Shown in pieces: positions 3,001 through 57,459 of a stretch of 64,000 nt of DNA. The stretch covers positions 12,784 through 76,783 of the forward strand of contig JBHLPF010000004.1 of assembly GCA_048939765.1 (NCBI GenBank). The letters run 5' to 3'. The position numbers and the translations under genes are program-made. The notes below the pieces were generated by a model, which saw nothing but the letters and a program-made list of their open reading frames with translations, was not told where the DNA came from and did no database searches. The stretch is from Promethearchaeota archaeon (lineage in GTDB: Archaea; Asgardarchaeota; Thorarchaeia; Thorarchaeales; Thorarchaeaceae). Every line of letters begins with the position of its first letter. The stretch's first letter is position 1.

Positions 3001-4555
3001 GTAGTTTGGCAGGGAATCTGCGTCACCGTCATAGTCATCATCGCGGATACCGCCATACGTGAAGGCATTAGTTGCACTTGTGTTTGTGACGTACAGCTCT
3101 ATTCCATTTGGCAGATTATCCCCATCAAAGTCCTCGTCATAATCAGATATCGAGTCGTCATCGGTGTCATCATCATTCGGGTCTGTACCTAGTTTAAAGA
3201 CTTCATCTCCATCCTTGACTTTGTCATCGTCAGAATCTGGGTCTCTTGGATGTGTAAAGGTGACATAGAGTTCGTTGTAGTTGTTTATTCCATCGAGGTC
3301 GGAGTCCTCCAAGTCGTCGGTGGTGAGATCTCCATCAGAATCGTTGTTGTTCGGGTTGGTTCTTGTGAAGTAGATTTCCTGTCCATTGGACAGATTGTCA
3401 CTGTCAAGATCCCAGTCATAGTCGTTAACTCCAGGGTTGAACGAGTTGGGGTCAGTGGGGTCAAAGCCCGCACTTAGGTACTTGATCTCATCTGGATCCT
3501 TAACACCATCAAAATCAGTATCAACTAGGGTTGCATTCGTGCCATACTGCAGGATTTCTTTCCCGTCGTCAATCGTATCTCCATCAGTGTCTCGATTATT
3601 TGGATCTGTATTGTATGCTATCTCTGCAGCATCATCAAGCGAGTCAAGATCAGAATCTGCGGAGTTGGGGTCAGTATCATAGATTAGAACTTCATCGCCG
3701 TCGGAAAGAGTATCCGCGTCAGAATCTGGATTCAACGGATCTGTGTTATAGGTATTGATTTCCTCCGCATCATCAAGATCATCAGAGTCTGAGTCTGCCA
3801 GATTGACATTTGTCCCATAGACAACGTACTCTTCGTAGTCGTTCAGCGTATCATCGTCGGAATCTGCGTCATTGGGCTTCGAACCAACGACTTTGACCTC
3901 GTCCCAATCGCTGAGATTGTCGTTGTCAGTATCTGTATCGGTTGGCGATGATTTGTATATCTTGACCTCAGCCCCGTCAAGAAGGCCGTCATCGTCGGAA
4001 TCGGGATCGAGTGGATCTGCCCCGACTTGAATCTCCTTCCAGTTTGTGAGGTTGTCCGCATCTTGGTCGTCATAGTAGTCAGAGGTGCCATCATTGTCAG
4101 AATCGACGTCATTGGGATCGGTTTCGGTCAGCCGTACTTCCTGTAGATTGGTGAGGCCATCCCCATCGTTGTCGTCCTGCGCGTCGTTAATGCCATTGTC
4201 ATTCGAGTCTGCCTCGTTGGGATCGGTCAGGGTGATGTTGTTCTCCTCATAATCGTCCAATTGATCTAGGTCGCTGTCTGCGGCATTGGGATCGGTCCCG
4301 AGATAGATCTCTTGCCAGTCTGTCAACAGATCGGAGTCGGAGTCTGGATCATTGGGGTCTGTCCCATAGGTGATGACCTCAGCAAAGTCGCTAAGTTTGT
4401 CAAAATCAGAGTCCGGCGCAAGCGGATTCGTTCCATAGTCTAGAACCTCTTCGCCATCATCTAGCTTGTCGAGATCAGAGTCTGGATTGTTGAACTGTGT
4501 GCCCTCAATGAGGGTCTCTCGAGCGTCCGCTAGGCGATCCTTGTCCTGGTCTTGA
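1..4555 (-). repeat. Protein-level tandem repeats (about 22 aa; TDP-x2-D-[ST]-D-x-D-x-L-x-D-x2-E), bacterial TSP3-like
   Basis: About 1500 codons of degenerate repeats; my rough estimate is 60-70 units. DNA copies are diverged, not identical. Confidence 0.88.
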
Positions 4556-5748: not shown

Positions 5749-6740
5749 GTTACACTCTCTCCTGTCTTTGTCTTCCAAGGTTTGACCTGGAAATAATCGA
5801 AGAAGTCCGCCTCTACGACAGATATCTCTTCGAAGGGAACCTTCCTCTGATTCATCACTTTGATCAGCGGAAGTATCTGGTCACTCGGATTGTCGATGAA
5901 CAGCTTCATGGCGTTTCTACCAGCCATGGCTGTGTATTGTACACCCGGTGCAGTCGCCAACCGATCTACAACTGTCGGCGAAAGCGAGGGCAATACAACT
6001 CTGATGCTCTCTCCCTTTCCTGGGAGGGTAGAAATGAGCTCCTCGGGCGTGCCAAACTGGCTTACAAGTCCATCTTCAAGCAGACACACTCGAGTGCAGT
6101 AGTCGACAATCTCAAGGTCGTGTGAGATAATCACCATAGTTGTACCCAGCTCGAAGTTGAGCTGCTTCAGGTAGTTCAGGGTTTCATGTCTTAGGTGTGC
6201 GTCGAGACCTGTTGTGGGCTCGTCGAGCAACAGCACTGGAGGTGCATGAATCATGCCAAGGCATATCGAAACCCGTTTTCTCTCGCCACCTGATAGACGT
6301 TTTACAGCCTTGGTCATCAATTCCTCGTCAAATCCGAGGATCTCCAGAATATTGCGTGCACGTGCCTCAATCTCCTTAGGCCTCATGCCAAAGCATCTAC
6401 CAAAGAACTCCGCATTCTGTAATGCGTTGAAATCATAATATAGGCTCAGATGCTCCAACTGTGGCACATATCCTACTAGGAGGCTGATGAGTTTCTCCTG
6501 TCTTGTGACATCATATCCTCCCACGTATGCCATTCCATCTGTCGGGCTGATCTGGCCAGTCAGCACCCGAAGGACTGTCGTCTTCCCTGCTCCCGAGGCT
6601 CCAATGATGCCGAGAAACTCCTTCTTGTTAGCAAAGAATGATACGCCCTTAAGTGCGTAGAAATCTCCAAAGGCTACTTTGAGGTCCTGGATGTCAATTT
6701 CCTTCTCCGGAAGTGGCGATTCTTCTGACATCTCAGACAC
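5745..6740 (-). CDS. ABC-2/DrrA-type exporter ATP-binding protein
   Basis: Walker A GASGAGKT, signature LSGGE, Walker B LLLDEPT, H-loop ISHD, C-terminal extension. Confidence 0.93.
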   Translation of the reverse strand: MSEMSEESPLPEKEIDIQDLKVAFGDFYALKGVSFFANKKEFLGIIGASGAGKTTVLRVLTGQISPTDGMAYVGGYDVTRQEKLISLLVGYVPQLEHLSLYYDFNALQNAEFFGRCFGMRPKEIEARARNILEILGFDEELMTKAVKRLSGGERKRVSICLGMIHAPPVLLLDEPTTGLDAHLRHETLNYLKQLNFELGTTMVIISHDLEIVDYCTRVCLLEDGLVSQFGTPEELISTLPGKGESIRVVLPSLSPTVVDRLATAPGVQYTAMAGRNAMKLFIDNPSDQILPLIKVMNQRKVPFEEISVVEADFFDYFQVKPWKTKTGESVT

Positions 6741-30610: not shown

Positions 30611-31996
30611 ATGCAACTACTCGTACAGGATGCATCAGAACTTCTGATGGCAGTGACATTGATTCTTGCAGCCATCATTCTAACTCGATATACAAGGCTT
30701 CGGACCGCCGACCTTCCTCCTGAAGAGAGAGGGGCGGGTCAGCCGCTATATCTGTCAGCGTTAGGAATCTTGACGCTGGCAGTGGCTTCGTTCTTGAACT
30801 ATCAGCTTCCACTTGATGCTGCTGCTTCAGTGTTGACTGCAACATATTATGTTACAACAATGCTAGCAGCCGCACTATTCGCTATTGCAGCTCTCATGAT
30901 ATTGGAGTGGAGGCGAGCTATAGTCGTTCCAGTAGTGATGCTAGTCCTCGGAACTGTCTATACATACGCGATCGTATTCATGGAAATGACTGTGAGCTTT
31001 GGCATGGTGGTAGGGCCAATATCCCTGATTCTCAACCTTGTACCGATTGGGCTATTTGCCTATTTGGCACATAAGACCAAGAGAATCACAGCAATTGCTC
31101 TACTATTCCTTATCGTTTCTTACATCATATATCCAATGGCAAGCACGTCGATTGATCCTTCAATGATTGCGGCACTACTTGGAATTCGGCTTTTGGGTCC
31201 AGCTCTGGCGATTTGGGCTTTTCTCAAGCCTGATCTCGGCGTTTCCATTGAGCTCTTTGGCTATGCTCTGTCCATCAACATAGTCGCGTTCTTTCTCTCC
31301 TATGTTGTAGCGATTGGCTTTGGAGATGCAATACTTTCAATCTCGGTGAGTCTTCTTGCCCTGTTGGCTGTTGTAGGATTTGCGACGAGTACATTCACAT
31401 TTTCTAGATTCCGTGAGCGACGAAATCCTGCAACTGGTCTGTTGGCGGTCTATTTCATTGTAGGGTCTGTGAGCTACATCATCGTTGCTCTCACCTATCT
31501 CGGTGCATTGACTGGCGCCATGAATGACTACACTAGCTCAATACTTGGCCTTATGGCCATGATGTTCCTCAACCTCAGTGCCTTTGTTGCTCTTGATTGG
31601 CGACGAATACTACTGCTTCCAATTGTGATTGCCGCACCAGCCATTGTCTTCATGATGATGAACTATCCGACCCCGATTGACGACATTGCTGGTTATGGGG
31701 CTTTCTTTGGAATGACAAACATGATTCAGAACATGGTTCCACTTGGACTGTATTTCTTGCTCTGGTACAGGATGAGGAAAGCAGATGCTATGGGAAGAAG
31801 CAGGCCCCTGTTTCTTGGTCTTGGACTTATCCTCCTAGCCGTTGGTAGCGTGATTGGTATGTTCACTCAAGGTGAGTTCACATCCGTTGGACTCGTTCCA
31901 AGCTCAACGTTGCTTCTTGCATACGTTGTGTTCTGGCTGGGTGTCACTGGCCGAGCCGACCAGCTCCTAGGCACATTTCGTCCGGAGGCACTATGA
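30611..31996 (+). CDS. Polytopic membrane protein, about 15 TM, with an internal 7TM duplication
   Basis: 15 hydrophobic segments counted by eye; paired motifs EWRRAIVVP/DWRRILLLP and NLVPIGLF/NMVPLGLY. Confidence 0.8.
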   Translation: MQLLVQDASELLMAVTLILAAIILTRYTRLRTADLPPEERGAGQPLYLSALGILTLAVASFLNYQLPLDAAASVLTATYYVTTMLAAALFAIAALMILEWRRAIVVPVVMLVLGTVYTYAIVFMEMTVSFGMVVGPISLILNLVPIGLFAYLAHKTKRITAIALLFLIVSYIIYPMASTSIDPSMIAALLGIRLLGPALAIWAFLKPDLGVSIELFGYALSINIVAFFLSYVVAIGFGDAILSISVSLLALLAVVGFATSTFTFSRFRERRNPATGLLAVYFIVGSVSYIIVALTYLGALTGAMNDYTSSILGLMAMMFLNLSAFVALDWRRILLLPIVIAAPAIVFMMMNYPTPIDDIAGYGAFFGMTNMIQNMVPLGLYFLLWYRMRKADAMGRSRPLFLGLGLILLAVGSVIGMFTQGEFTSVGLVPSSTLLLAYVVFWLGVTGRADQLLGTFRPEAL

Positions 31997-31997
31997 A

Positions 31998-32516
31998 ATG
32001 GCACTTCGAAGCCCAATCTACAAGATGGTTCTAATTGGCGAAGGCGGCGTTGGCAAGACCAGCATCACTGTTCGCTACACTGAGGACCGATTCGATGAAC
32101 AAATGAAGATGACAATAGGAGTCAACTTCGCATCAAAGGAGGTTGTTCTCGACGATGGGAGTGTCCGGCTTATGCTCTGGGATCTTGGGGGTCAGCCCAG
32201 ATTCAGGGATGTAGTCTCCGGATACTTCAAGGGGGCAAGAGTAGCTCTTGCTGTCTATGATGCAAACAGGTACTTCTCTCTTGAACGTCTCACTGATTGG
32301 ATAAGTCGTGTGAGAGAGAATGCTCCTGACTGTCAACTCATCTTTGTTGGAAACAAAATCGATGAAAGGCAGAATGGCCAAGGCGTGCCTCTAGAAGAGG
32401 GGCGAGAGTTCGCCGTGAAATACGGAGCCGCCTGTGTAGAAGTATCTGCAAAAACAGGAGAGGGTATCTCAGAGCTGTTTGAGGTCGTCGCTCGTTCTCT
32501 AGCGAGCGAAAATTGA
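31998..32516 (+). CDS. Rab-like small GTPase (Ras superfamily)
   Basis: G1 GEGGVGKT, G2 TIGVNF, G3 WDLGGQ, G4 NKID, G5 SAK; no C-terminal Cys. Confidence 0.95.
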   Translation: MALRSPIYKMVLIGEGGVGKTSITVRYTEDRFDEQMKMTIGVNFASKEVVLDDGSVRLMLWDLGGQPRFRDVVSGYFKGARVALAVYDANRYFSLERLTDWISRVRENAPDCQLIFVGNKIDERQNGQGVPLEEGREFAVKYGAACVEVSAKTGEGISELFEVVARSLASEN

Positions 32517-45466: not shown

Positions 45467-45586
45467 ATTTGATTTATCTCCAGACTCTTTAATCAACATT
45501 CTGAGGACAGAGGATATAACTCAATCCTCATATGTGAACTATAGATTACCTGACACATGGCTTCTCAAGAGAGGAAACGACCCAAG

Positions 45587-46579
45587 ATGGACAGAAACAA
45601 AGCTCTAGCAGCAACTGTAGTTGTCATTGTAGTTTCTTCAGCGGCATTGATCGCTTTATGGTATCCAACCACATTGCCAGATGTGAGAATCGGGTATCTT
45701 GAGAAGGACCTTCATCAATTGGCATTTCGTGTAGCCCTTGTAAATGGATGGTATGAAGAAGCAGGCCTCACTGTTGAATTGAAATCCTACAACAATGGCG
45801 GCTTTGAGATGGATGCTTTTCTTGGAAATGAGATTGATATGGGTTATTTGGGTGCGGCGCCAGCTCTGACAAAGAGTATAAACCAAGACATATTGATCAC
45901 AATACTCGCGTCGGCGAACCTCGAAGGATCTGCGATTATGGTTCGGAAAACGGACTATGATTCTGGTACCATAACACACATAGCCAATCTTACTGGGAAA
46001 TCAGTCTATATACCTGGACTGCCAACTGTGCAAGCTTTCCTGCTTCGTCTTGCTTTGAATCAGTCGGGACTGAGTCCCTCTGATGTTTCTCTCCTCTCCA
46101 CATCTCCTGCATTCATGGCAGACTCTCTCACTGAAGATGCACCTGCCTTTGTTGCATGGGAGCCATTCAACGCGAGAGCGGAATTTGATGGTCTAGCAGT
46201 TCCTTTGGTGCTTTCAGGAGATATTTGGCCACGCCATCCTTGTTGCGTTGTAGCATCATCTAATGCTTTTCTCAGCAATCATCCAGACATAGTTCAAACA
46301 ATCGTTGACATTCATGTTCGTGCTGAAGAATGGATTGTGAACAATCCTACAGAGGCAATTTCCATTGCAGCTACATGGCTTGAGATGGAGGATGCTGTTT
46401 CTGCTGTTGAAACCGCTTTCAACCGGATAATTTACGATTACAACGTGAACCGCACTGCACTTGGGATGTATCTGGACTTTCTGATTGACCAAGACCAACT
46501 GCTTCCGTATCAGATTCCTACTGACCCAAGCGCCTTCATGGATGGATTCATCAATACAACATTCTTGGAGAACACCTAA
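45587..46579 (+). CDS. ABC transporter substrate-binding protein (nitrate/sulfonate/NMT1-like)
   Basis: N-terminal TM, VRIGYL, DMGYLGAAP, WEPF, HPCC. Confidence 0.88.
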   Translation: MDRNKALAATVVVIVVSSAALIALWYPTTLPDVRIGYLEKDLHQLAFRVALVNGWYEEAGLTVELKSYNNGGFEMDAFLGNEIDMGYLGAAPALTKSINQDILITILASANLEGSAIMVRKTDYDSGTITHIANLTGKSVYIPGLPTVQAFLLRLALNQSGLSPSDVSLLSTSPAFMADSLTEDAPAFVAWEPFNARAEFDGLAVPLVLSGDIWPRHPCCVVASSNAFLSNHPDIVQTIVDIHVRAEEWIVNNPTEAISIAATWLEMEDAVSAVETAFNRIIYDYNVNRTALGMYLDFLIDQDQLLPYQIPTDPSAFMDGFINTTFLENT

Positions 46580-46631
46580 GCCAAAAAACGGTAGAATCAA
46601 AAGAAAGTCAAGCAGCTGAAGCTCTCAGAAG

Positions 46632-47459
46632 ATGACATCAGCTACACAGACTTCAGATGAAGCGAGCCCGATACAGAGTACAGAGCCCAATCTTTCAAGG
46701 TTTGCAGAGTCGCCTATTGTCAGATTGATTGTAGCAGGAATAATACTGGTTCTGCTCTGGGTCTTCATCGCGTTCTTCTCAAGAAGCACCATTCTGGAAG
46801 TGATTGATGCTTTCATTAGGTTGTCCACGGAGGGGGACAGCCAAGGCTTTCTTCTCATAGATCATGTAGCACAGAGTGTCTTCATCGTCAGTGTGGGATT
46901 TTGTGTGGCTGCAATTACAGCGATACCCCTTGGCATTGCGCTTGGCAGGTATAAGGTAGCGGATTCTATCCTGGGACCAGTCGTCGAGGCAATGCGACCA
47001 ATTCCACCAATTGCGTGGATTCCGCTATCACTCCTTATCTTTGCTAGTCTTTTGTATTCACAGATCTTCATAATCTGGGTAGGTGCCTTCTTCCCAATTC
47101 TCATCAATACTACCACCGGAGTCAAACGTACGGAACCTGTTCATGTTGATGTGGCTAAGACCTTCGGGGCATCAGAATCAAAGATACTTAGCTCGGTTGT
47201 TATTCCATCGGCTGCGCCTGAGGTGTTTGCAGGAATGCGAATCGGTTTTGGAATTGGATGGATGTGCCTAGTAGCTGCAGAGATGATTGGCAGCAACAAG
47301 GGATTGGGCTATCTGATTTGGACCATGCAACAGGTTGGATGGACTGGAGCTGTAATCTCAAGTATGTTAGTTATTGGGGTAATTGGATTTGCAGTCAGTT
47401 TCCTTCTGCTTATGATTGAAAGAAGGCTGCTCAGATGGCGACAGGGGGTTTCTGTTTAG
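46632..47459 (+). CDS. ABC transporter permease (SsuC/TauC-like)
   Basis: RPIPPIAWIP, EAA-like VAKTFGAS, LVAAEM. Confidence 0.92.
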   Translation: MTSATQTSDEASPIQSTEPNLSRFAESPIVRLIVAGIILVLLWVFIAFFSRSTILEVIDAFIRLSTEGDSQGFLLIDHVAQSVFIVSVGFCVAAITAIPLGIALGRYKVADSILGPVVEAMRPIPPIAWIPLSLLIFASLLYSQIFIIWVGAFFPILINTTTGVKRTEPVHVDVAKTFGASESKILSSVVIPSAAPEVFAGMRIGFGIGWMCLVAAEMIGSNKGLGYLIWTMQQVGWTGAVISSMLVIGVIGFAVSFLLLMIERRLLRWRQGVSV

Positions 47460-48231
47460 ACTGGCGGCTCATGGCCTTTTCCTGTTCGACTCTCAGGACT
47501 TCCAATATTCTTGCTCGATAGTCAAGGCTCTCAGGAGATGTTCTATTACGTGGTTTTGGAAGGTCCACAACATACTGTGCGATTATACTCGAGGGTATAT
47601 TGCTCATCACCAAAATCCTATCAGACATGAAGACAGCTTCATCAACATTGTGTGACACAAATAGGACAGTTGAGCCAGTTTCCTCTGTAATCCTTAGGAA
47701 TTCAGCTTGAAGGTGATTCCTTGTCTGTGCATCTAGATTTGATAGTGCTTCATCGGCGACAAGAATATCAGGTTTGATAATCAGACTCCTTGCCATTTCC
47801 GTACGTCGAGCCTGCCCTCCTGATATTTCGTGGGGAAGGTTGTCTTCCAGTCCTTCCATTCCTACAATCCGAATTATCTCATTAGACAACGCCCGTCTAT
47901 CTGATATCTCGGAGCCAGCAATCTCTAGGCCATATTCTATATTCTGGCGGACACTCCTCCAAGGAAAAAGTGACTCCTGTTGAAAAATGAAACCTACACG
48001 ATTATGGCCGGGACCAACTGGAACCCCATCTATCGCGACTTCTCCCTCATCCGGTACGAGGAGACCTGCGATGATTTTCAGGAGTGTTGTCTTGCCGCAT
48101 CCTGAAGGGCCGAGGACGCTCAGAAATTCCCCGTCTTTCACGTCAAATGAAATCCTATCGAGAACTCTGGTTACTCCGCCCTCTCCATTTGGATAGGCCT
48201 TCACAATGTTCCGAACCGAGAGTGTAGGCAA
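47431..48231 (-). CDS. ABC transporter ATP-binding protein (SsuB/TauB-like)
   Basis: GPSGCGKT, ISGGQ, VADE, SHNVDEAV, LPKPR. Confidence 0.92.
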   Translation of the reverse strand: MPTLSVRNIVKAYPNGEGGVTRVLDRISFDVKDGEFLSVLGPSGCGKTTLLKIIAGLLVPDEGEVAIDGVPVGPGHNRVGFIFQQESLFPWRSVRQNIEYGLEIAGSEISDRRALSNEIIRIVGMEGLEDNLPHEISGGQARRTEMARSLIIKPDILVADEALSNLDAQTRNHLQAEFLRITEETGSTVLFVSHNVDEAVFMSDRILVMSNIPSSIIAQYVVDLPKPRNRTSPESLDYRARILEVLRVEQEKAMSRQSKQKPPVAI

Positions 48232-48425: not shown

Positions 48426-50729
48426 TTGACCACGCCTAGAATTCTCTTCGAGATCGAGGATGACAAAAGCACCACCGCAATAGCCATGGGAGACGTCACT
48501 GGATCAGGAACCTCAGAACTCTGTACGGGAGACCGGGATGGTGTCCTTAGGCTATATGATGGAAGTACAGCTGAGATTAGGTTCCTCGCTCAAAAGGACC
48601 TAGAAGGCAGTATCCTGTCACTCAAAATTGCAGATGCGAATAATGATGGTCGAATGGAGATTGTTGTAGGACGCAGTCTCGATCCAGGAGATATTCCGGG
48701 TGAGTCCGGTACTCTTCAAGTCTATAGATTCGCACCAAGTGGACAGTTTCAACTTCTAGGAGAGTATCCGGTTGACAAGTTTATCACAACTGTCATGGTG
48801 ACTGATGTCACGGGGGATGAGAAGAACGAGATAATTGTTGCAGGGAGTGACTCGTCTCTTCGAGTGTTCCAGATGGATGTTGATGACAAGATTACTGAAT
48901 ATGCCAAGCATCAGCTTGAAAACATGCCAATCTCGATCGGTGTCTGTGATGTGATTGGTGATGAAATCGACGAGTTTGTCACAGGTAACATTGATGGCTC
49001 ACTCAGAGTGTTCAAGGTGAGGGACCACACCATTGATGAGATTGAAGTACTACAGCTTCCGAGTCCGATCATATCAGTCAAGGCTGGAGATATCTTGGGT
49101 GACAGGAAGATGGAGCTGGGCGTTGTCACTCGAGACGGGACTATCAGAGTCTATCGAAACGAGGAGAGCAAGCTGGACCTCTTCACCAAGCTTGAAGGAG
49201 TGAATGCACTCTCCATTGTGATGGAAGAGATCAATGCAGATCACATGGATGAGATGATAGTTGCAACTTCTGATTACAAGGTCAAATTCTACAATCTGCA
49301 TATGGCCGAGCTTCTAGAACTAGCCAGCGTGAACATTGGCGAGAAGATTCTCTCAATCAGTGTTGGAGATGCAGGAGGAGATGACCGAAAAGAAGTCCTA
49401 GTGGGTATATCGAACGGTCCATTGAGGGTTCTCCAGGGCCTCTATCAGCTGATTCCCAAGTTTGAGATTGATACACAAGCAAAGACCGGAACTAATCTCA
49501 TAGGCAAAGTCACTGTTGCGAATATCACAAGTCAGCCCATCACTGGAGTCACTGGCAAGGTATACTGGTTCCCTAAGGATAACCTCCAGGTTTCTAACAA
49601 TCACCTCAAATTCGATCTGAATCCTGGTGAAACCAAGACGATTCAATTGGACCTTGTACCTACCACTGAAGGAACTGTCATCATTCGTCCAATAGTGTTG
49701 ATGTGGACAGATGCTTCAGGCCAAGTGAAACAGATCACAACTCCTGAGACTGCGATCCTCGTGGAGAAAGGAGCTGCTGTAGCTGCGCCCGCTGCCATGC
49801 CATCAGTATCATTGCCCGAACCTTCGGCAGCCATCGTTGATGATTTGACAGACTATGCCCCAGCCGAGGGCACTGGCTTTGCTGAAGTCGAGAAAGCTAA
49901 AGCAGCAGAGATTCTCAAGATGACTGCCTCTGAGGGTTCGGATGAGTCCTTGAGAGAGGCCGAAGAGTTGCTCGACAAGCTGTTTGGAGTAGAGGAAACC
50001 GGTACAGTCATCTCTGAGGTTGAAGAGGTTTCGGCAGTGATGGAACAGGCTGCTCCCCCGGCCCCTGCTCCGGCACAAGTAGTCGTTGAAGAAGTCGTGG
50101 ATGAGAGCGCTCTAGTCACTGAGATGAGAGCACGTACTCCTAAACCGCCACGCCCAGGTACGCCCAGCGACAGTTACACTTACCTCTTCAAGGTAATGGT
50201 GACCGGGGAAGGCGCTGTAGGAAAGACGACGCTCGTAAATCGCTACGTAACTGGTGTTTTCGAGAGGGACTACAAAACGACGATTGGATCTCAGTTCGCC
50301 GTCAAGCTCACTCACATTTCGCCCCCAGAGCCGGAGTACGCTGTGGGAATCAAGCTTCAGTGTTGGGACGTTGCCGGGCAGGCCAGATTCAAGGCTGTGC
50401 GCAAGATGTACTACAGTGGTGCAGCAGGAATCATCCTCGTCTATGACGTGACCAGAAGACGCTCATTCACCGAGCTCTCCAAGTGGGTCAAGGAGGCGGA
50501 CGAGTCAATTGGCCTACGCGTGCCAATTGTTGTGGTAGGCAACAAGACCGACCTTCCAGACAGAGCAGTACCATCAGCTGAGGCGAAGCGCTGGGCGGAG
50601 GACCAAGGCTTTCTCTACATGGAGTCTTCTGCAAAGACTGGTGATGGCGTAGCAGATATGTTCACTGTCCTGGCTGAGCAGATGTGGCGAGATGCAAAGA
50701 AGGCCACTGAGGCAAAGAAAAACAGATAG
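48426..50729 (+). CDS. Fusion protein: FG-GAP/BBS2-like beta-propeller, Ig-like domain, acidic linker, Rab-like GTPase
   Basis: Seven blades with D-x-x-G-D-x-x-x-E motifs; beta-sandwich (LNPGETKTI); GEGAVGKT, TIGSQF, WDVAGQ, NKTD, SAK. Confidence 0.9.
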   Translation: MTTPRILFEIEDDKSTTAIAMGDVTGSGTSELCTGDRDGVLRLYDGSTAEIRFLAQKDLEGSILSLKIADANNDGRMEIVVGRSLDPGDIPGESGTLQVYRFAPSGQFQLLGEYPVDKFITTVMVTDVTGDEKNEIIVAGSDSSLRVFQMDVDDKITEYAKHQLENMPISIGVCDVIGDEIDEFVTGNIDGSLRVFKVRDHTIDEIEVLQLPSPIISVKAGDILGDRKMELGVVTRDGTIRVYRNEESKLDLFTKLEGVNALSIVMEEINADHMDEMIVATSDYKVKFYNLHMAELLELASVNIGEKILSISVGDAGGDDRKEVLVGISNGPLRVLQGLYQLIPKFEIDTQAKTGTNLIGKVTVANITSQPITGVTGKVYWFPKDNLQVSNNHLKFDLNPGETKTIQLDLVPTTEGTVIIRPIVLMWTDASGQVKQITTPETAILVEKGAAVAAPAAMPSVSLPEPSAAIVDDLTDYAPAEGTGFAEVEKAKAAEILKMTASEGSDESLREAEELLDKLFGVEETGTVISEVEEVSAVMEQAAPPAPAPAQVVVEEVVDESALVTEMRARTPKPPRPGTPSDSYTYLFKVMVTGEGAVGKTTLVNRYVTGVFERDYKTTIGSQFAVKLTHISPPEPEYAVGIKLQCWDVAGQARFKAVRKMYYSGAAGIILVYDVTRRRSFTELSKWVKEADESIGLRVPIVVVGNKTDLPDRAVPSAEAKRWAEDQGFLYMESSAKTGDGVADMFTVLAEQMWRDAKKATEAKKNR

Positions 50730-50731
50730 CT

Positions 50732-51334
50732 TCAGCGCCGCAGTCTGAGGATGTCGGCAACACCTGCATCATATGCTGCCCGATTCATTTCTGGATTACG
50801 AAGAGTAGTTTCTACTGCTTTCCGAATTTCATCCTTGTCCATTGGGATTCCCCTCAAAGAAGATACGGCACCGAGCATGTAGGAGTTAAGAAACAGCAGG
50901 CCTCCCGATTTCTCTAAGGCCTCCATAGGATCAAGCGCTATGGCCTCTCCGCAAAGAAACTGGAGTGATTCGACTATCTTCTCTACTGGTGGATAATCCT
51001 CAGTTTCGGCGAGGGAGCTCGGCGTCTCGACTATCGTGGTACTGACGACTGCAACGGTCTGTTGGCTCGCATACTCGATGGCCGCTCTCAAGGCTTCAAG
51101 CGGTTCCATTCCCAATAGGAGGTCAGCTTTTCCTTTGGGAATCAGAGGTCCTCTGTCCTGCTTACTGATTCGAAGATGTGTAAGGACTGTGCCACCTCTC
51201 CTTGATGCACCAAAGGTTTCTCCTACCACTGGGCGAAGCCCATTCTGAAGTGCAGCTTCAGATAGAATTCTACCACACACGAGATTACCCTGGCCTCCCA
51301 CACCAGCAATTAGAATGTTGTAGTCATCATTCAT
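50732..51334 (-). CDS. iorB: Indolepyruvate:ferredoxin oxidoreductase beta subunit
   Basis: AGVGGQG, ETFGASRRGGTV, EPLEALR. Confidence 0.9.
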   Translation of the reverse strand: MNDDYNILIAGVGGQGNLVCGRILSEAALQNGLRPVVGETFGASRRGGTVLTHLRISKQDRGPLIPKGKADLLLGMEPLEALRAAIEYASQQTVAVVSTTIVETPSSLAETEDYPPVEKIVESLQFLCGEAIALDPMEALEKSGGLLFLNSYMLGAVSSLRGIPMDKDEIRKAVETTLRNPEMNRAAYDAGVADILRLRR

Positions 51335-51337
51335 TGG

Positions 51338-53209
51338 TCATCCCTGCTTAATCGCACCATGTGGGCATACTATGACGCAGGCTCCGCATCTCACGCAGAT
51401 GTGGTCATGGATGATTGGTCTAGCTGCTTCATCTTGCCATCCAAGAGCTACACATCCAAACTGGGCAGCACAAATCTTGCAGCTCTCGCCACGGCACATA
51501 TCTGAGTCAATGTGTATTCGTTCCTTCTCAGCATAGGTCTCTCCCATCCTTTGTTCCTCGAGTCTACAGATACTCTTGAACAGTAGAACATTGAGGCCGT
51601 CTTTGCGGATGGTGTCATGAATGAGGTCCACGGTTTTAGACAGGTCCGTGGCATCGCCAACAGCATAGAAGTCTGGTTCGATAGCTTGGACTATCTTCTC
51701 AATACTCACCATCCTCTGTCCTTCAGGTTGGTCCTCCTCACCTGGATGTTTCTGGAACCCGGTCATGGCTGTGGTGGAATTGTCAAGAATCATGAATGTG
51801 ACATTCGCATTCTTGTGTTTCGCGTTAATCAGAGCAGGTATGCAGGCATGCAGAAAAGTCGAGTCTCCTGCAACTGCTGCGACTCGGGACTCGAGGCCGA
51901 ACTCGTGAAGCTGACCAAGTCCGCTAGCAATCCCGATTCCTGATCCCATTGAGAATAATGTGCCTATAGCTTCATCATAGAAGACTCCAAGAGAGTAGCA
52001 ACCAATATCCCCAGTCACTGAGAGCTTTCCGCCCAACCTCTGCTTCACCTTGCGAACAGCCCAGTACACATTTCTATGAGTACATCCAGCACAGAACGTC
52101 AAGGCTCGTCCGATCAGGAGCGAACGTGCGGACTCCCGAAGACTCATCTCCCTTTTGTCAGGCTTTTTCAATCTGAGACCTAGCGCTTTGTGCACTGCTT
52201 CGATTGCCAGATTGGTATTCATTTCTCCATATGCCGGTGCCGCACCATCCCGTTTGCCATGGAATTTGCAGTTGACAGAAGGCAGCTCAGTTGATAACGC
52301 ACGCACTGCATCTTCCACAAATGGATCTGATTCTTCTAGGAAGAGTACATTAGGTGCTTTCCTGATTGCCTTGTATATCAACTTCCTTGGCAGGGGATGC
52401 GTTGTGACAAGACCCAAGGATCCGCTGCTTTCTGCACCTGCCGATTCTATCGCTTCTTCTGCATACCTTTGACATATTCCAGATGCAATCGTAAGAAGGT
52501 CTACATTCTTCTTCGCGCGCAGCCTGTTGAATGGGCTAGTGTCAAATTCCTCTGAGATTCTCTGAATCTTGTTCTGAAGTTCATGTCTTGCTAGATGAGG
52601 ATTCGGGACATTGTAGAGCTTCTCTTTCATCTTTAGTGGTTTGGGGTATTCATAACTATCAATTGGGCAGGGATTGACCAGTCCCCGAGAGTGACCGAGT
52701 CGGGTTGTGCTTCGAATAATGACTGGTACATTGTATTTTCTTGAGATGTCAAAGGCATAGGGTACCACATCCTTTGCTTCTTGGTATCCCGAGGGCTCTA
52801 GCAGAGGCAGCAGTGCTGCCTTTGCATAGAATCGGGAGTCTTGTTCAGTACTGGTAGAGTGGCCTTCGGGATCATCACCAACAATGATTACAAGTCCCCC
52901 GTCTCCACATTCTGATAGATTCATAGTCAGAAGAGAGTCGGACGCAACATTAAGACCTAGGGACTTCATTGAGCAAAGCGCAGGTATACCTGCCCAACTC
53001 GCCGCCGCAGCCGCTTCAAGCGCGACCTTCTCATTGACACTCCATTCTGCATGGATTTGAATGCTCTCCGCTTTTCTCATGAGATATTCTGTTATCTGTG
53101 TCGCAGGTGTTCCTGGGTAGGATGTACAGAAGCCCACTCCCGCTTCAAGCGCACCTCTAGCCAATGCATCATTGCCGCTCATCAAACGAGCAGAAGTTTC
53201 GCCATCCAT
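51338..53209 (-). CDS. iorA: Indolepyruvate:ferredoxin oxidoreductase alpha subunit
   Basis: GNDALARG, YPGTP, NEKVA, EQDSR, DIGCY, GDST, TAMTG, C-terminal ferredoxin. Confidence 0.93.
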   Translation of the reverse strand: MDGETSARLMSGNDALARGALEAGVGFCTSYPGTPATQITEYLMRKAESIQIHAEWSVNEKVALEAAAAASWAGIPALCSMKSLGLNVASDSLLTMNLSECGDGGLVIIVGDDPEGHSTSTEQDSRFYAKAALLPLLEPSGYQEAKDVVPYAFDISRKYNVPVIIRSTTRLGHSRGLVNPCPIDSYEYPKPLKMKEKLYNVPNPHLARHELQNKIQRISEEFDTSPFNRLRAKKNVDLLTIASGICQRYAEEAIESAGAESSGSLGLVTTHPLPRKLIYKAIRKAPNVLFLEESDPFVEDAVRALSTELPSVNCKFHGKRDGAAPAYGEMNTNLAIEAVHKALGLRLKKPDKREMSLRESARSLLIGRALTFCAGCTHRNVYWAVRKVKQRLGGKLSVTGDIGCYSLGVFYDEAIGTLFSMGSGIGIASGLGQLHEFGLESRVAAVAGDSTFLHACIPALINAKHKNANVTFMILDNSTTAMTGFQKHPGEEDQPEGQRMVSIEKIVQAIEPDFYAVGDATDLSKTVDLIHDTIRKDGLNVLLFKSICRLEEQRMGETYAEKERIHIDSDMCRGESCKICAAQFGCVALGWQDEAARPIIHDHICVRCGACVIVCPHGAIKQG

Positions 53210-53330
53210 CTTGTGCCATCGGAGTAGACGTTAGTGGTGATAGAAAACACTTCCGACTTTAATAGCATAAGCAATTGTACATTAAAGAAAGAAAGAAAAG
53301 GGCCGCTTCAATTTTCCTTCTGAATGTACT

Positions 53331-54395
53331 ATGAGCAAGACCCCTGATGCAAAGAGTAGACTCACAGGACTGCTGTCGATTTCTCATGACAAAGACGTCG
53401 ATGGTCTGAATGCAGCAGCGATAGTATGGCGCTATGCGAAGTCAAAGGGTCTTAAGTTTGACATGATACTGACTGACTATGGATACTTCGACCAAGCCTT
53501 TTCGCAAGTCGCCAAGCGAAGACATACGCTCATAGTAATCACTGATCTTGGTATTGATGAGAACTCGATGAATTTCGCCATTGATGGTCTGTCCAGGGCT
53601 GTCGCACAGGGATGTAGAGTCGTTTGGCTTGACCATCACTCATGGAGCAAGGAAGCAATTGACGCTGTTCTTTCTCTAGAGAACAAGCCTGTCCTCAGGG
53701 TGAATACCGACTATTGTGCAGCTGAGATCGCCCATAAGAGCCTCATGCCAAGGGATGAGATCTGTGCTGAACTCGCTCGCATTGCACATGACACTGATTT
53801 CAATCTGAGGGAGATAGAGGCGGCTGTTGCTCTGGCAGACTTGGTGTCAGTCAGTCGATTTACATCGATTAACAAGAAAGAGGACATGAGTGCTGCAGTT
53901 CTACCGATAGTCACCGGTCTAGCTGAGAATGGTATAGCTGGAATATGGAACGAAAAGACGAAGAAATTCAAGGATGCAACAATGGAGCGACAGGTCCGCG
54001 AATATCGGAAAGAGCGCCTCAAAAAGATGAAGAAGTCACTAGCTGGCCATTGTGATCAGCTTATTCATGACCGGCTCGTTCGCGTTGTTGAGATACCTAC
54101 AGGGGTGACTACTACTGATCTCGGGACGTATCTCGCTGATGAGAAGAACCTTGAGATTGAAGGACAGAGATTGAAGGTGGCTGACTTGCTGATAACTGTA
54201 AGTCAAGGCGGCCTTCTCGGATTCAGAAGAGGCAATGATTCCACCTTATGCAATGTAGCTGCGGGGCTATTCAATGGAGGTGGACATCCCTATGCCGCTG
54301 GGGGTGAATATGGGATGTATGATGACTTTCAAGCTGTCTGCGATGATATATTCTTGACGCTCTCCAAGGGCCACGACTGGGTCATTCCGTCATAG
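53331..54395 (+). CDS. DHH/DHHA1 family phosphoesterase
   Basis: DVDG, TDLG, DHH, GGGHPYAAG. Confidence 0.88.
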   Translation: MSKTPDAKSRLTGLLSISHDKDVDGLNAAAIVWRYAKSKGLKFDMILTDYGYFDQAFSQVAKRRHTLIVITDLGIDENSMNFAIDGLSRAVAQGCRVVWLDHHSWSKEAIDAVLSLENKPVLRVNTDYCAAEIAHKSLMPRDEICAELARIAHDTDFNLREIEAAVALADLVSVSRFTSINKKEDMSAAVLPIVTGLAENGIAGIWNEKTKKFKDATMERQVREYRKERLKKMKKSLAGHCDQLIHDRLVRVVEIPTGVTTTDLGTYLADEKNLEIEGQRLKVADLLITVSQGGLLGFRRGNDSTLCNVAAGLFNGGGHPYAAGGEYGMYDDFQAVCDDIFLTLSKGHDWVIPS

Positions 54396-54398
54396 GTT

Positions 54399-55370
54399 CT
54401 ATGAGTCCGAATCCTCGCGCTCCTTTGATTTTGCCAGCTTTGCTACTGCTTCCAAAATATCCACTCCCTCTTCCCAGATCTTGTCGAATGTGTTCAATGC
54501 ATCATGGACCAAACCAGGATTGTCTTCCCTACGAACAAGCGCTGCCATGTCAGATGCAGGAGAGTGTGTGAGGTAGAGAAGCATCACGTCAGTGTTCAGA
54601 GCAACGATTCTATAGGTCTTAAGAGGAGTTTTAGGACTTCGAACCTCTATATTTCCAGTTTTCATGACTTCCTGCAGGAGCTTCCCCAATCCACCAATAT
54701 ATCTGGAGATTACGCTCGGGTCACGTGATGCATCTCCTGTAGGTACTAGAATGCTCCGGAGCCTGATGCCTTCTGCCGCTTTCATCAAGAGCTGCATTTC
54801 GGTGACTCCACTGGTTTCATAATCTCTGTCAATAGCTTGTATGGGAGCAATCTGTTTTATTATATCGCCAGGCCTTGCCTTCTGAAAAATCTCTCTTATG
54901 AGTGCGCTTCTTACATTTTCGACTCCTTCTATTACAGTCGACGTGTCGATAGGTACACTCCCCACAATTGTGTCATATGCCATCATTGTTAGGTCTCTTA
55001 CTGTTGTGTCTTTTAGTGTCTTCAAGTCCCCTTTTACCTCGGCTTGATCGGATTTCAATTCATTCACACGTGAGGACAGCTTTCTCTTCAGAGCCTCAGC
55101 GATGATTCCTTCAGATGTCTTATATCGACGTGGGCTTTCAATTCGTTCAGTGCTAATGAACCCCCCGTCTTCCAGACGGCCCAGGCATTTGTATATCCAG
55201 ACTTTTGAGAGCTTCATGCCCTTCTTCTTCAGATTATCAAAGAGGTCAGCAAAAGTGACTCCGTCTGAGCTCTTCTCCATGCCAATTAATACTCTAAGGA
55301 CCTGCATGTCACGAGACGACATATCCACTCCAATTCTCTCAAAGATATCCTTGCCAACCATTCCACTCAT
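54399..55370 (-). CDS. TrmB-like transcriptional regulator (wHTH, coiled coil, PLD-like domain)
   Basis: IYKCLGRLEDGGFI...PRRY, IEGVENV, FDKIWEEG. Confidence 0.8.
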   Translation of the reverse strand: MSGMVGKDIFERIGVDMSSRDMQVLRVLIGMEKSSDGVTFADLFDNLKKKGMKLSKVWIYKCLGRLEDGGFISTERIESPRRYKTSEGIIAEALKRKLSSRVNELKSDQAEVKGDLKTLKDTTVRDLTMMAYDTIVGSVPIDTSTVIEGVENVRSALIREIFQKARPGDIIKQIAPIQAIDRDYETSGVTEMQLLMKAAEGIRLRSILVPTGDASRDPSVISRYIGGLGKLLQEVMKTGNIEVRSPKTPLKTYRIVALNTDVMLLYLTHSPASDMAALVRREDNPGLVHDALNTFDKIWEEGVDILEAVAKLAKSKEREDSDS

Positions 55371-56278
55371 TCTTCTCTCGACTCCGTCAGAATCTCAGCT
55401 TTTACATAATCCTCTGAGAAGCTCTCGATTGCAGCCTCCATAAGCATAGTATTTGCATCCCTGGAAATCCAAGTGCCAGCCAGCGGTTCTTCAGCCACGA
55501 TTAAGACCATTCCCTCTCCACTCTTTGACACAAACTGGTATGTGGCATCCTGTCTGATGTGTTTCCTCAGCTCAATATTGTGACCCTGGTTTCGCAGCTT
55601 TTGGATGACTGCACCAAGCTCATCAGTGAACCCATGTTTTTCCTCTGAGCGGCACAATACTCGAGTTTCTGCGCCACTCTTTCCCAGGCAGTCGAGAATA
55701 CTAGCAATCCTGCTCCCATGACCCGCTTCTGCCCTCATCCAATCAGTTGTCAATCGAATAATGTCGCCACGATTTGCCTTCCTACATATCTCTCGCTCAA
55801 TTAGGCTAATACAAGGTCCCAAGCCCTCCACAAATATGGGCTTAGGCCTAATGCGCCGACCGGTCATTGTTGATACGAATTGGCTTGCCAGAGTTCCTGG
55901 GTCAAGATATGTCAGTTCCTCGATTTCAGATTCGAGCTGACTCACCCTTCCCTCTAGCTCCTTCACAGCGGTTTCCTTTGCTCTCTTCAGACCAACACGC
56001 ATCACCTTATGGCTCGTCCCATACCTGTGACGGTAGCCAGTCCGGTCAATAACGATGAACCCATCCTTTTCCAATGAGGTTAAGCTTCGATACAGAAGGG
56101 GGTCCGATACGCTCTTTTCTCCCTCCTCTATCATGAACGCATCCTTGATGTCTTCAAAAGTAACAAAGGTATCATGGTCCCTCTGGACTTTCATTAAGGC
56201 TCTCAAGACCACCATTCTTCTCTCATCTGGGTCAATACCAATCAACTCCAGTGCCGTTTCTTCAGTCCGGCCTGTCAA
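55367..56278 (-). CDS. TrmB-like transcriptional regulator
   Basis: LYRSLTSLEKDGFI, coiled coil, paralogous C-terminal domain. Confidence 0.78.
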   Translation of the reverse strand: MTGRTEETALELIGIDPDERRMVVLRALMKVQRDHDTFVTFEDIKDAFMIEEGEKSVSDPLLYRSLTSLEKDGFIVIDRTGYRHRYGTSHKVMRVGLKRAKETAVKELEGRVSQLESEIEELTYLDPGTLASQFVSTMTGRRIRPKPIFVEGLGPCISLIEREICRKANRGDIIRLTTDWMRAEAGHGSRIASILDCLGKSGAETRVLCRSEEKHGFTDELGAVIQKLRNQGHNIELRKHIRQDATYQFVSKSGEGMVLIVAEEPLAGTWISRDANTMLMEAAIESFSEDYVKAEILTESREE

Positions 56279-56295
56279 TGCCCCCGCCTCTATGT

Positions 56296-57339
56296 CTACT
56301 TCTCCTTGCTCCCCTTACCTAAGTCTGTCCTATCGAGTAGCATCTTTGCAAGGGGGCTGTCACTTGTTCCCATCTTTTCGAAATCCTTCGCGGTGAGTTC
56401 GAATATTGATTTTGCATTCTTCCAGTTCTCATCAAAAGATGATATTGCATTATCAATCAGATCGGGATTGAACTCTCTAGTCAGCCATGTCGCAGTGAGT
56501 GGGTTCTCAGTGATCACTAATGCTGTACTCTGGTCATTCAGACTTACTTGGCTATACGTCCTTCCTGCTGGGAACACGCGCACGTCAAACTTGATTCCAG
56601 CTTCTCGCATCTTGATTATTCCTTGAGCTATGTCGCCCATCCTTTGCGGGTCCATATCTCGTTCGACCAACTCACCCGCTGAGAGAATATCAAGCGTCAC
56701 GAGATAACGCACGTCTACTCCTCTTTGGGCTGCATTGATGAATTTCATCATTCGGTCTTCACCCCCCTTTAGAAGAGGGGTGAGCCAAAGCACTGTAGCT
56801 CGTATCACGTCGCCTTTCATCGCTACATCAGTTACGTTGTACTTCAGGACCCTGTCTAGTTCATCAACTCCGCGAACTATACGAGTCGTTGGTGCTTGAT
56901 CTTGACCGGTCAGAGCCCTCACTAGACGTTGAGCTAAAACTCCGCAATCGAGCTTCGAAATCTGATACTGGTTCACCTTCAGTGATTCCAACTCGTCCTC
57001 AATCTGGTTTATTCTGTTAGTCTTGAGTTGTTCTAATCCAGTCATTATTGTGTTAACATCGGCGACATATTTCTTACGAGACTGACCCTCAACTCGTACG
57101 AGTTGGTTCTCAACCAAGGGCTTTAACACTCTATGCACCCAAGCCTTAGAGAGATTTCCATCAGGAATTTCCTCCAAGACCGACTCATAGACTTCCGTGA
57201 ATGAGCGTGGAGCAGGAGGGTCTCCCTGGATCTTCAAGATTGCACGAAGGACTCCAATCGTTCTCGACTCCTCTTCAGCTGTACCTACATTGAGGCCAAG
57301 AATCTCCAGAGCCTCTCTAAGAGTTTCATCTTCAATCAT
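56296..57339 (-). CDS. TrmB-like transcriptional regulator
   Basis: VHRVLKPLVENQLV, IVRG, AAQRGVDVRYL, FDENWKNA. Confidence 0.8.
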   Translation of the reverse strand: MIEDETLREALEILGLNVGTAEEESRTIGVLRAILKIQGDPPAPRSFTEVYESVLEEIPDGNLSKAWVHRVLKPLVENQLVRVEGQSRKKYVADVNTIMTGLEQLKTNRINQIEDELESLKVNQYQISKLDCGVLAQRLVRALTGQDQAPTTRIVRGVDELDRVLKYNVTDVAMKGDVIRATVLWLTPLLKGGEDRMMKFINAAQRGVDVRYLVTLDILSAGELVERDMDPQRMGDIAQGIIKMREAGIKFDVRVFPAGRTYSQVSLNDQSTALVITENPLTATWLTREFNPDLIDNAISSFDENWKNAKSIFELTAKDFEKMGTSDSPLAKMLLDRTDLGKGSKEK

Positions 57340-57459
57340 GTTCCCGACCAACCCAATTTTGAGTATCTTCAAATCAATGCTTAAACTGATAACATACTTA
57401 CTTGATGAATGTTTACAACCACAATTGCCTTTAATATGCTCGTGTACTTGTCTTATTGC

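Follow-up and report, generated by a model that had tools for sequence, protein, structure and literature searches.

A conserved Thorarchaeal protein that joins an FG-GAP-class propeller and an Ig-like domain to a Rab-like GTPase

The small GTPases of Asgard archaea are central to arguments on the origin of eukaryotic membrane traffic, and to our knowledge almost nothing is known of their binding partners. In the window (the whole stretch of 64,000 nucleotides that was analysed), one gene encodes a Rab-type switch that is permanently attached to a candidate effector module, whose best matches among solved structures are the propellers of the BBSome and of KICSTOR. The initial annotation took this for a Rosetta-stone fusion of a coat- or adaptor-like module with its GTPase. 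Is the module a relative of these eukaryotic assemblies, and what might such a single chain do?

The gene is a single intact open reading frame with a TTG start and a stop codon at 50727-50729, and its orthologues have a methionine at the position that matches the TTG. Its product consists of four parts: the propeller, the Ig-like sandwich, an acidic linker, and the GTPase with a basic tail. These are laid out as follows.

48426..50729, + strand: whole gene, propeller-Ig-linker-Rab-like GTPase, 767 aa (from the list of open reading frames and the translation)
48426..49445, + strand: seven-blade FG-GAP-class beta-propeller, aa 1-340 (AlphaFold2, Pfam and structure scans)
49449..49784, + strand: Ig-like beta-sandwich, aa 342-453 (AlphaFold2 of the domain alone, pLDDT 90.4)
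49785..50159, + strand: acidic Ala/Pro-rich linker, aa 454-578 (column conservation 0.39-0.59)
49869..49880, + strand: GTGF motif in the linker, aa 482-485 (T and G almost invariant)
49950..49988, + strand: amphipathic helix motif, aa 509-521 (consensus ESLKAAExLLDQLFG, block conservation 0.86)
50139..50159, + strand: PKPPRPG segment directly before the G domain, aa 572-578 (kept in all orthologues, including P0124)
50181..50684, + strand: Rab-like small GTPase domain, aa 586-753 (Pfam Ras, E 5e-46; intact G1-G5 and RabF-like motifs)
50685..50726, + strand: short basic C-terminal tail without Cys, aa 754-767 (43 orthologues)

Every sequence feature quoted in the initial annotation was located in the 767-aa protein, and the order of parts that it gave is correct, as is a cytosolic location. 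Across the whole protein, no stretch of 19 residues has a mean Kyte-Doolittle hydropathy above 1.24, and hydrophilic residues make up the N-terminus; the protein therefore has neither a transmembrane segment nor a signal peptide, in agreement with the earlier claim.

The fusion is not unique to this assembly, a possibility raised at the outset. Within its family, 72 of 76 genomes encode a full-length orthologue, as does the single genome of the sister family, and none of the 224 other Asgard genomes searched does; among the genomes searched, the fusion protein is confined to the Thorarchaeales. It is encoded by a single-copy gene, with open frames mostly of ca. 760-830 aa and no internal stops, and its full-length orthologues, at 61-97% identity, make up more than 120 clusters. 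These clusters, together with the presence of orthologues in 73 of the 77 genomes of the order, rule out an assembly or fusion artefact. Short relatives at 69% identity or more look like fragments, since each of them either sits on a short contig or carries a partial annotation, and the representative sequences include only full-length proteins and fragments, with no split or longer forms. The locus has a stable, housekeeping-like chromosomal context, with an ABC transporter, an indolepyruvate/2-oxoacid:ferredoxin oxidoreductase and a DHH protein as neighbours. Genes on the opposite strand flank the fusion gene, and operon partners were rejected because the neighbours are all encoded on the opposite strand or functionally unrelated; no linked partner gene was found in the neighbourhood. 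A 319-aa Arf-like protein is encoded next to the distant orthologue P0124 and has no counterpart at the window locus. The gene product is a genuine cytoplasmic protein, strongly conserved within one Asgard order.

Conservation within the protein is highest in the G domain (0.9-0.98). This domain contains GEGAVGKT (aa 594-601), the switch-I threonine in YKTTIG, WDVAGQ with the catalytic glutamine (aa 647-652), GNKTD (aa 705-709), and SSAKTG (aa 734-739). Measured against the canonical forms of the RabF motifs, RabF1-F5-like motifs (IGSQF, KLQCW, RFKAV, YYSGA at aa 662-666, and LVYDVT at aa 671-676) stand at the expected positions; an intact GTPase with the last two of these had been recognized from the start. 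The G domain carries the full residue set for GTP binding and hydrolysis. Its best sequence match in the PDB is Thor-Rab (7EZB, 1.2e-41), followed by Rab14 and Rab11. A GTPase phylogeny, proposed as a check alongside the initial annotation, was run on Thorarchaeal and other Asgard sequences only, and there the G domains of the fusion proteins group in a single clade (SH-aLRT 93), the sister (80) of a stand-alone Thor-Rab family of 182 aa. On this tree, the G domain appears as a lineage-specific Thorarchaeal Rab paralogue and not as an Arl6-type partner. The tail is basic, as had been noted, and a cysteine for geranylgeranylation is absent from it in 43 of 43 orthologues.

AlphaFold2 was run on aa 1-455 and on the sandwich domain alone. 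The longer model (pLDDT 90.7, pTM 0.87) has seven blades that end near aa 340, which matches the end near 49440 first proposed for the propeller, and then a sandwich at aa 342-453, where a beta-sandwich of ca. 105 aa had been claimed. Seven D-x-x-G-D-x-x-x-E repeats begin at aa 23, 70, 127, 175, 222, 268, and 315; one blade, at aa 126-148, reads TDVTGDEKNEIIVAGSDSSLRVF. The propeller scores 68.5 bits with the Pfam model FG-GAP_3, 55.2 with Beta-prop_BBS7, and 52.7 with BBS2_Mid, the latter two above their Pfam cut-offs, and 35.1 bits with Itfg2 (cut-off 27), where the match covers profile positions 20-136 of 330. All of these are multi-stretch, blade-level matches without one collinear alignment. 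The propeller of the fusion belongs to the same class as those of BBS1/2/7/9, ITFG2, and integrin alpha.

Class membership is less than kinship, and it is on kinship that the Rosetta-stone proposal turns. The module might be a true homologue of the BBS1/2/7/9 propeller-GAE core or of ITFG2, with the GTPase that recruits it attached in cis, so that a proto-BBSome or proto-KICSTOR subunit would record an ancestral partnership of coat or adaptor with GTPase; we consider this unlikely, although the structural searches do point toward it. When the aa 1-455 model was compared with the PDB by Foldseek, ranks 1-9 and 11 went to BBS2, BBS9, BBS7, and BBS1 over 470-535 alignment columns, with ITFG2 next, and in VIA, a Foldseek-independent scan of 48,161 solved chains, BBS2 ranked first (Z 34.6, 17% identity) and ITFG2 second (Z 33.4). 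ITFG2 superposes on the fusion propeller with an rmsd of 2.7 over 324 residues. However, the list of Z scores is flat, with rank 50 still at 29.3 and the WD40 propellers of CIAO1 and alpha-COP at 31-32. BBS2 and ITFG2 thus lead unrelated WD40 propellers by 1-3 Z units, a margin so small that it does not show shared ancestry.

Nor are the Pfam matches specific. They were compared with those of giant multi-repeat FG-GAP proteins, including the TSP3-bearing giant encoded in the window itself; the giants pass the BBS2_Mid, BBS7, and Itfg2 cut-offs equally well or better (Itfg2 up to 65 bits), and the window's own giant also passes the BBS/ITFG2 cut-offs. Such giants are also the nearest sequence relatives beyond the fusion family. 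This comparison leaves out the set that held P0140, itself a protein of an Asgard archaeon (Helarchaeales). Among the ESM Atlas neighbours, bacterial VCBS clusters stand at 0.87 and the BBS2 and BBS1 clusters at 0.83-0.84, all below 0.9 and to be read as leads only.

The sandwich gives a similar picture. Foldseek matched it to TRAP-beta (3.6e-6), to transglutaminase/protein 4.2 barrels, and to CARDB, with BBS9 at rank 50, and its top VIA matches are tied among an A2M MG domain (Z 12.2), transglutaminase (Z 11.6), and the BBS1 GAE domain (Z 11.1; rmsd 2.5 over 101 residues). The GAE-like character proposed for this domain thus survives as one of several equal or better resemblances, and neither BBS2_GAE nor GAE_BBS1 of Pfam has a match in the 767-aa protein. 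The coiled-coil, platform, and helical domains of BBS proteins are absent as well; beyond aa 453 there are only the acidic linker and the G domain. The fusion is found in one order only, with none in the other Asgard families searched, and its G domain is not Arl6-like, both of which weigh against an ancestral partnership. A passing mention in an October 2026 preprint (10.64898/2026.10.28.762692), which at that point gives no member proteins, labels one structural cluster exclusive to Asgard archaea and eukaryotes as BBS7/ITFG2, and this would favor kinship. Taken together, the BBSome and KICSTOR likeness noticed at the outset is real at the top of both structural rankings but unspecific. Because the resemblance of propeller and sandwich is unspecific, the further BBS domains are absent, and the G domain is of a non-Arl6 type, the Rosetta-stone link to a eukaryotic coat is not shown. 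Nothing shows either a coat function or BBSome ancestry of the protein.

A stand-alone propeller paralogue of 433 aa has the same genome distribution as the fusion, and the co-occurring two recall the pairs BBS2/BBS7 and KPTN/ITFG2. It is a still longer shot that this Thorarchaeal two-propeller system is a true relative of the BBS2/BBS7 or KPTN/ITFG2 cores, a GTPase-gated pre-eukaryotic adaptor that other Asgard lineages have either lost or changed beyond recognition.

Two other readings fare worse. In the first, the protein would be a sensor NTPase of a conflict or signaling system, comparable to STAND or ROCO-like proteins with repeat sensors, with the propeller as the detector of a ligand or an invader protein and the GTPase as a timer. 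A STAND NTPase is indeed present in one FG-GAP relative (P0133), and the Pfam model Roc scores 104.7 bits on the fusion protein, but the protein ends 14 residues past the G domain with no COR domain and has no effector domain. Moreover, defence genes are patchy in their distribution and evolve fast; the fusion gene shows the reverse, with one copy per genome, near-universal presence in its order, 61-97% conservation, and a fixed syntenic position among housekeeping genes, so we regard this reading as very improbable. A search for defence systems with PADLOC gave no match. The second, a surface or extracellular FG-GAP/VCBS adhesin with an incidental GTPase-like domain, is hardly credible: the FG-GAP_3 repeats (68.5 bits), the giant FG-GAP proteins as nearest non-family relatives, and the CARDB-like matches of the sandwich would suit it, but the fusion has no signal peptide or transmembrane segment, its intact G domain would find no GTP outside the cell, and the integrin-type Ca-binding pattern is incomplete in its DxxGDxxxE motifs.

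We favor, at a probability of roughly 55%, a cytoplasmic single-chain, self-tethered switch combined with a protein-binding platform. The propeller and sandwich would form the platform, and the nucleotide bound to the tethered G domain would set whether the platform, or the switch surface of the G domain itself, is free or occupied in cis. The linker, which is flexible and poorly conserved outside its short motifs, could act as a leash that provides a high local concentration, replacing the separate recruitment step of eukaryotic Rab and Arl effectors. In the protein studied here, it is ca. 125 aa long with 26 acidic and 9 basic residues, and the 43 orthologues have median values of 125 aa, 26 acidic and 8 basic residues; the initial description of an acidic linker with one amphipathic helix therefore stands, and its length of ca. 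135 aa is corrected to ca. 125. The helix sequence, LREAEELLDKLFG, occupies aa 509-521, with the A, E, L, L, L, F, and G of the motif almost invariant across orthologues. Switching in cis may involve this conserved helix (LLDxLFG) as well as the GTGF motif; both are absent from P0124, the most distant orthologue (41% identical), so the core mechanism must work without them. Prenylation is not possible for this protein, and any contact with membranes would therefore depend on partners or on the short basic tail.

As one soluble polypeptide, a switch tethered to its platform in this way offers an experimental handle on nucleotide-dependent contacts between a G domain and a propeller. Should such a contact be real, archaea would offer an instance of a Rab-type G domain that binds a propeller, comparable to ARL6, a small GTPase that in eukaryotes docks on the BBS1 propeller, going by the title of PDB 4V0M. 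If there is no contact, the fusion is still an order-specific marker. A full-text literature search found no description of a propeller-Rab fusion or of a propeller-Ig partner of a small GTPase, and the propeller-Ig-Rab architecture had no Ras-superfamily description in the literature searched.

Known systems resemble the protein part by part. BBS2, BBS7, BBS9, and BBS1 (PDB 6VBU, 6VOA, 6XT9, 4V0M, 4YD8) share with it a cytosolic seven-blade FG-GAP-class propeller followed by a beta-sandwich, but at 13-17% identity, and the GTPase of the fusion is Rab-like and covalently attached. ITFG2 (PDB 9O5A, 9V6E) is likewise a single cytosolic FG-GAP-type seven-blade propeller, but unlike the fusion protein it has no Ig domain or GTPase. 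Prokaryotic FG-GAP/VCBS proteins, the closest sequence relatives beyond the family, have blade motifs of the same class (FG-GAP_3), and the integrin alpha headpiece has the same succession of a propeller and an Ig-like (thigh) domain; these proteins are secreted or membrane-anchored, usually with many repeats, whereas the fusion protein is located in the cytosol and combines exactly seven blades with a GTPase. The G domain is 51-58% identical to the 182-aa stand-alone family of Thor-Rab (PDB 7EZB/7EZD/7EZE), whose GTPase activity has been measured (Tran et al. 2024, PMC10933270) and which shares the RabF-like motifs of the fusion and its lack of prenylation cysteines at the C-terminus (PMC10933270). 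Thor-Rab is a bare G domain, to which the fusion adds an N-terminal propeller, Ig domain, and linker, ca. 585 residues in all, and a small insert between beta2 and beta3 (ISPPEPEY). Multidomain Asgard small GTPases, which are roadblock or longin fusions (PMC10933270), and the eukaryotic large Rabs have partner domains other than propeller-Ig, but they follow the same principle of coupling a small G domain with interaction domains that are not catalytic.

The propeller-GTPase fusion occupies a single open reading frame, whose TTG start is credible because the orthologues have Met at the same aligned position (consensus MxSPKILFEI). The initial annotation had described a seven-blade propeller, a beta-sandwich, an intact Rab-type GTPase and a basic tail in a protein with neither signal peptide nor transmembrane segment, and all of these elements were recovered. 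Seven D-x-x-G-D-x-x-x-E motifs (aa 23, 70, 127, 175, 222, 268 and 315) recur at a spacing of 46-57 residues, and the blade quoted earlier, TDVTGDEKNEIIVAGSDSSLRVF, lies at aa 126-148. The AlphaFold2 model of aa 1-455 (43-sequence alignment; pLDDT 90.7, pTM 0.87) has a seven-blade propeller up to ca. aa 340; the beta-sandwich that comes after it (aa 342-453) reached pLDDT 90.4 when modelled alone. The highest Kyte-Doolittle mean over 19-residue windows is 1.24; thus, the protein has no transmembrane segment or signal peptide. Its sequence also predicts a cytosolic location.

Features of the fusion, its flanks and its paralogue (nucleotide positions refer to the window unless a contig or locus is named; aa, residues of the fusion)
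48426-50729, plus strand: fusion gene, single unbroken ORF of 767 codons, TTG start
aa 454-578, plus strand: linker, low conservation (0.39-0.59 per 10-residue block)
aa 482-485: GTGF island, from linker conservation
aa 509-521: amphipathic helix ESLKAAExLLDQLFG, block conservation 0.86
directly before the G domain: PKPPRPG island, from linker conservation
upstream of the fusion, opposite strand: ABC transporter (NMT1-like binding protein, permease, ATPase)
downstream of the fusion: indolepyruvate/2-oxoacid:ferredoxin oxidoreductase, then DHH protein
C46:76101-77399 of the window's own genome, G000 (= L001:889-2190), minus strand: stand-alone propeller paralogue, 433 aa, cytosolic

Concern that the fusion might be unique to this assembly was dispelled by its distribution. 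Its best full-length relatives are annotated 'GTP-binding protein [Candidatus Thorarchaeota archaeon]', and more than 120 clusters of relatives, nearly all of 740-830 aa, are 61-97% identical to it over 95-100% of the query. When 300 other genomes of the phylum were searched with the N-terminal 455 residues, matches were found in 72 of the 76 genomes of the same family and in the one genome that represents another family of the order, and in none of 224 genomes from 28 other families. The gene is single-copy in each genome; paired matches arise only where it is divided over two contigs, and complete copies are open frames of ca. 760-830 aa without stops. Among 1.84 billion 50%-identity representatives searched with aa 1-450, only three clusters have the fusion architecture. 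One of these, the most distant orthologue (P0124, 781 aa), is 41% identical and has the same Pfam architecture; below the three, the bit score drops from 359 to 118, where giant multi-repeat proteins come next. Thus, genome counts and representative search establish that the fusion is real, old within the order, and restricted to that order among the genomes searched. Purifying selection on it is strong across the order.

The fusion gene stands alone between genes on the opposite strand. The same gene order is found in orthologous loci at 64-68% identity, and part of it in the 41%-identical one, which fits vertical inheritance; synteny across Thorarchaeal genomes spans 45557-48231 (NMT1-type ABC transporter) and 50732-54395 (oxidoreductase and DHH). 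This conserved neighbourhood offers no clue to function, and PADLOC returned no match in the fusion context. In one genome (locus L024), the oxidoreductase and DHH genes are separated by the gene for a further small GTPase of 177 aa. Three genes in tandem at 54399-57372 (minus strand) encode proteins of 323, 303 and 358 aa, for which Pfam gives only weak hints of a winged-helix-like fold (FUR, TrmB, MCM_C); a similar trio (299, 303 and 350 aa) follows the DHH gene of the orthologous locus L025. In the 41%-identical orthologue's genome, a protein of 319 aa whose C-terminal part is an Arf-like G domain (L009:11794-12753, minus strand) is encoded three genes away from the fusion; the window lacks an equivalent at this position.

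The fusion is a multidomain Asgard Rab-like GTPase. Its G domain matches Pfam Ras (E 5e-46) with G1-G5 and RabF-like motifs intact, and YYSGA and LVYDVT are at aa 662-666 and 671-676, as first quoted. The top PDB sequence match is the stand-alone Thor-Rab (7EZB, 1.2e-41), with Rab14 and Rab11 ranking below; Thor-Rab folds like a Rab and hydrolyses GTP intrinsically at a level comparable to Rab11B (Tran et al. 2024, PMC10933270). Among proteins of at most 420 aa, all matches at 69% identity or more look like fusion fragments, because they are on short contigs or annotated as partial, and the next tier (51-58%) is a 182-aa Thorarchaeal Rab family. The window's genome has 28 small-GTPase-like ORFs, one of which, a 181-codon stop-to-stop ORF at 31971-32513 (plus strand), scores 89 bits against the fusion G domain. 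The GTPase phylogeny proposed in the initial annotation was built by maximum likelihood from Thorarchaeal and other Asgard sequences only; in it, fusion G domains form a single clade (SH-aLRT 93) whose sister (SH-aLRT 80) is the 182-aa family, including this genome's own copy (C83:36663-37232). The G domain thus stems from the duplication of a Rab-like gene specific to the lineage. The tail is short and basic, with Cys in none of 43 orthologues.

The proposed BBSome/coat-like identity of the N-terminal module fared less well: the BBS matches rank first, but they are not specific. Foldseek of the aa 1-455 model against the PDB, the check suggested at the outset, filled ranks 1-9 and 11 with BBS2, BBS9, BBS7 and BBS1 (E 4e-18 to 3e-13, 470-535 columns aligned), followed by ITFG2, integrin alpha headpieces and CRTAC1. 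VIA-align, which does not depend on Foldseek, likewise ranked BBS2 first among 48,161 representative chains (Z 34.6, rmsd 2.3 over 296 residues at 17% identity), with ITFG2 next (Z 33.4), but the list is flat (LGI1 EPTP 32.3, CIAO1 31.8, alpha-COP ca. 31, rank 50 at 29.3). Pfam Beta-prop_BBS7 (55.2 bits), BBS2_Mid (52.7) and Itfg2 (35.1) all exceed the cut-off of 27, as several blade-level stretches rather than a single collinear match. Because the control P0140 is an Asgard archaeon protein, giants were added to the Pfam specificity controls, including the one at window 1-5778 (minus strand). That protein, with bacterial TSP3 repeats, also passes (BBS2_Mid 40.9, BBS7 28.4); it extends past the window start as a 2301-aa open frame with FG-GAP-type propeller stretches and is probably a surface protein. 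The FG-GAP protein P0151 (BBS7 60.9, BBS2_Mid 67.1) scores as high as the fusion or higher, an FG-GAP protein fused to a STAND NTPase (P0133) reaches BBS7 77.4 and Itfg2 65.3, and further FG-GAP proteins (P0134, P0128) likewise equal or exceed the fusion on these models. ESM Atlas neighbours, all below 0.9 and so leads only, are bacterial FG-GAP/VCBS clusters (0.87) and BBS2 and BBS1 clusters (0.83-0.84). The sandwich does match the BBS1 GAE domain, as claimed (Z 11.1, rmsd 2.5, 101 residues), but the MG domains of A2M and complement (Z 12.2 and 11.8) and transglutaminase barrels (Z 11.6) score above it; with CARDB (Z 10.1) and TRAP-beta (Foldseek 3.6e-6), these folds resemble the modelled sandwich as much as GAE does, or more. 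We read the module as a member of the FG-GAP propeller class, represented in eukaryotes by BBS1/2/7/9, ITFG2 and integrin alpha. That it is truly kin to the BBSome or KICSTOR is improbable.

The propeller paralogue scores above the Pfam cut-offs for BBS7 and BBS2_Mid; its residues 98-423 are collinear with all seven blades of the fusion (22% identity, E 1e-18). It has a variable N-terminal extension of ca. 95 aa, no Ig domain or GTPase, and no GTPase gene among its neighbours. Its distribution is that of the fusion (72/76, 1/1 and 0/224), a co-occurrence that does not establish a functional link, because related genomes are not independent samples. An actin-family gene ca. 4 kb away on the same contig (L023:11259-12398, plus strand; Pfam Actin E 1e-132) is probably unrelated.

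The linker, first put at ca. 135 aa, has a median of 125 aa across orthologues; it has 26 acidic against 8 basic residues and is rich in Pro, as claimed, and also in Ala; the single amphipathic helix, LREAEELLDKLFG, is at aa 509-521. Three conserved islands stand out. The GTGF and helix islands, which look like short linear motifs in sequence, are missing from P0124.

Full-text literature searches found no description of a propeller-Ig-Rab architecture, which is also absent from the account of Asgard GTPases in Tran et al. 2024 (PMC10933270). A preprint of October 2026 (10.64898/2026.10.28.762692) lists in passing, and without detail, one Asgard-eukaryote-exclusive structural cluster, 'cilium-associated (BBS7/ITFG2)', which has a match in the ESP catalogue compiled by Kostlbacher et al. 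(2026). The observation of the fusion is confirmed, and its original interpretation is supported in part.

We favor, at a probability of roughly 55%, a general model in which the tethered G domain, through its nucleotide state, controls use of the propeller-sandwich. It builds on the intact Rab-type G domain, the flexible acidic tether with its islands, and the confidently folded propeller and sandwich. The propeller-sandwich would be a putative protein-binding platform, gated in cis or toward partners, and tethering would take the place of a separate recruitment step; anchoring by prenylation would be ruled out. Thor-Rab likewise has no C-terminal cysteines for prenylation (Tran et al. 2024, PMC10933270). 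BBS2/7/9 have coiled-coil, platform and helical domains, all three of which the fusion lacks; BBS proteins and ITFG2 share with its module a cytosolic, single-propeller format.
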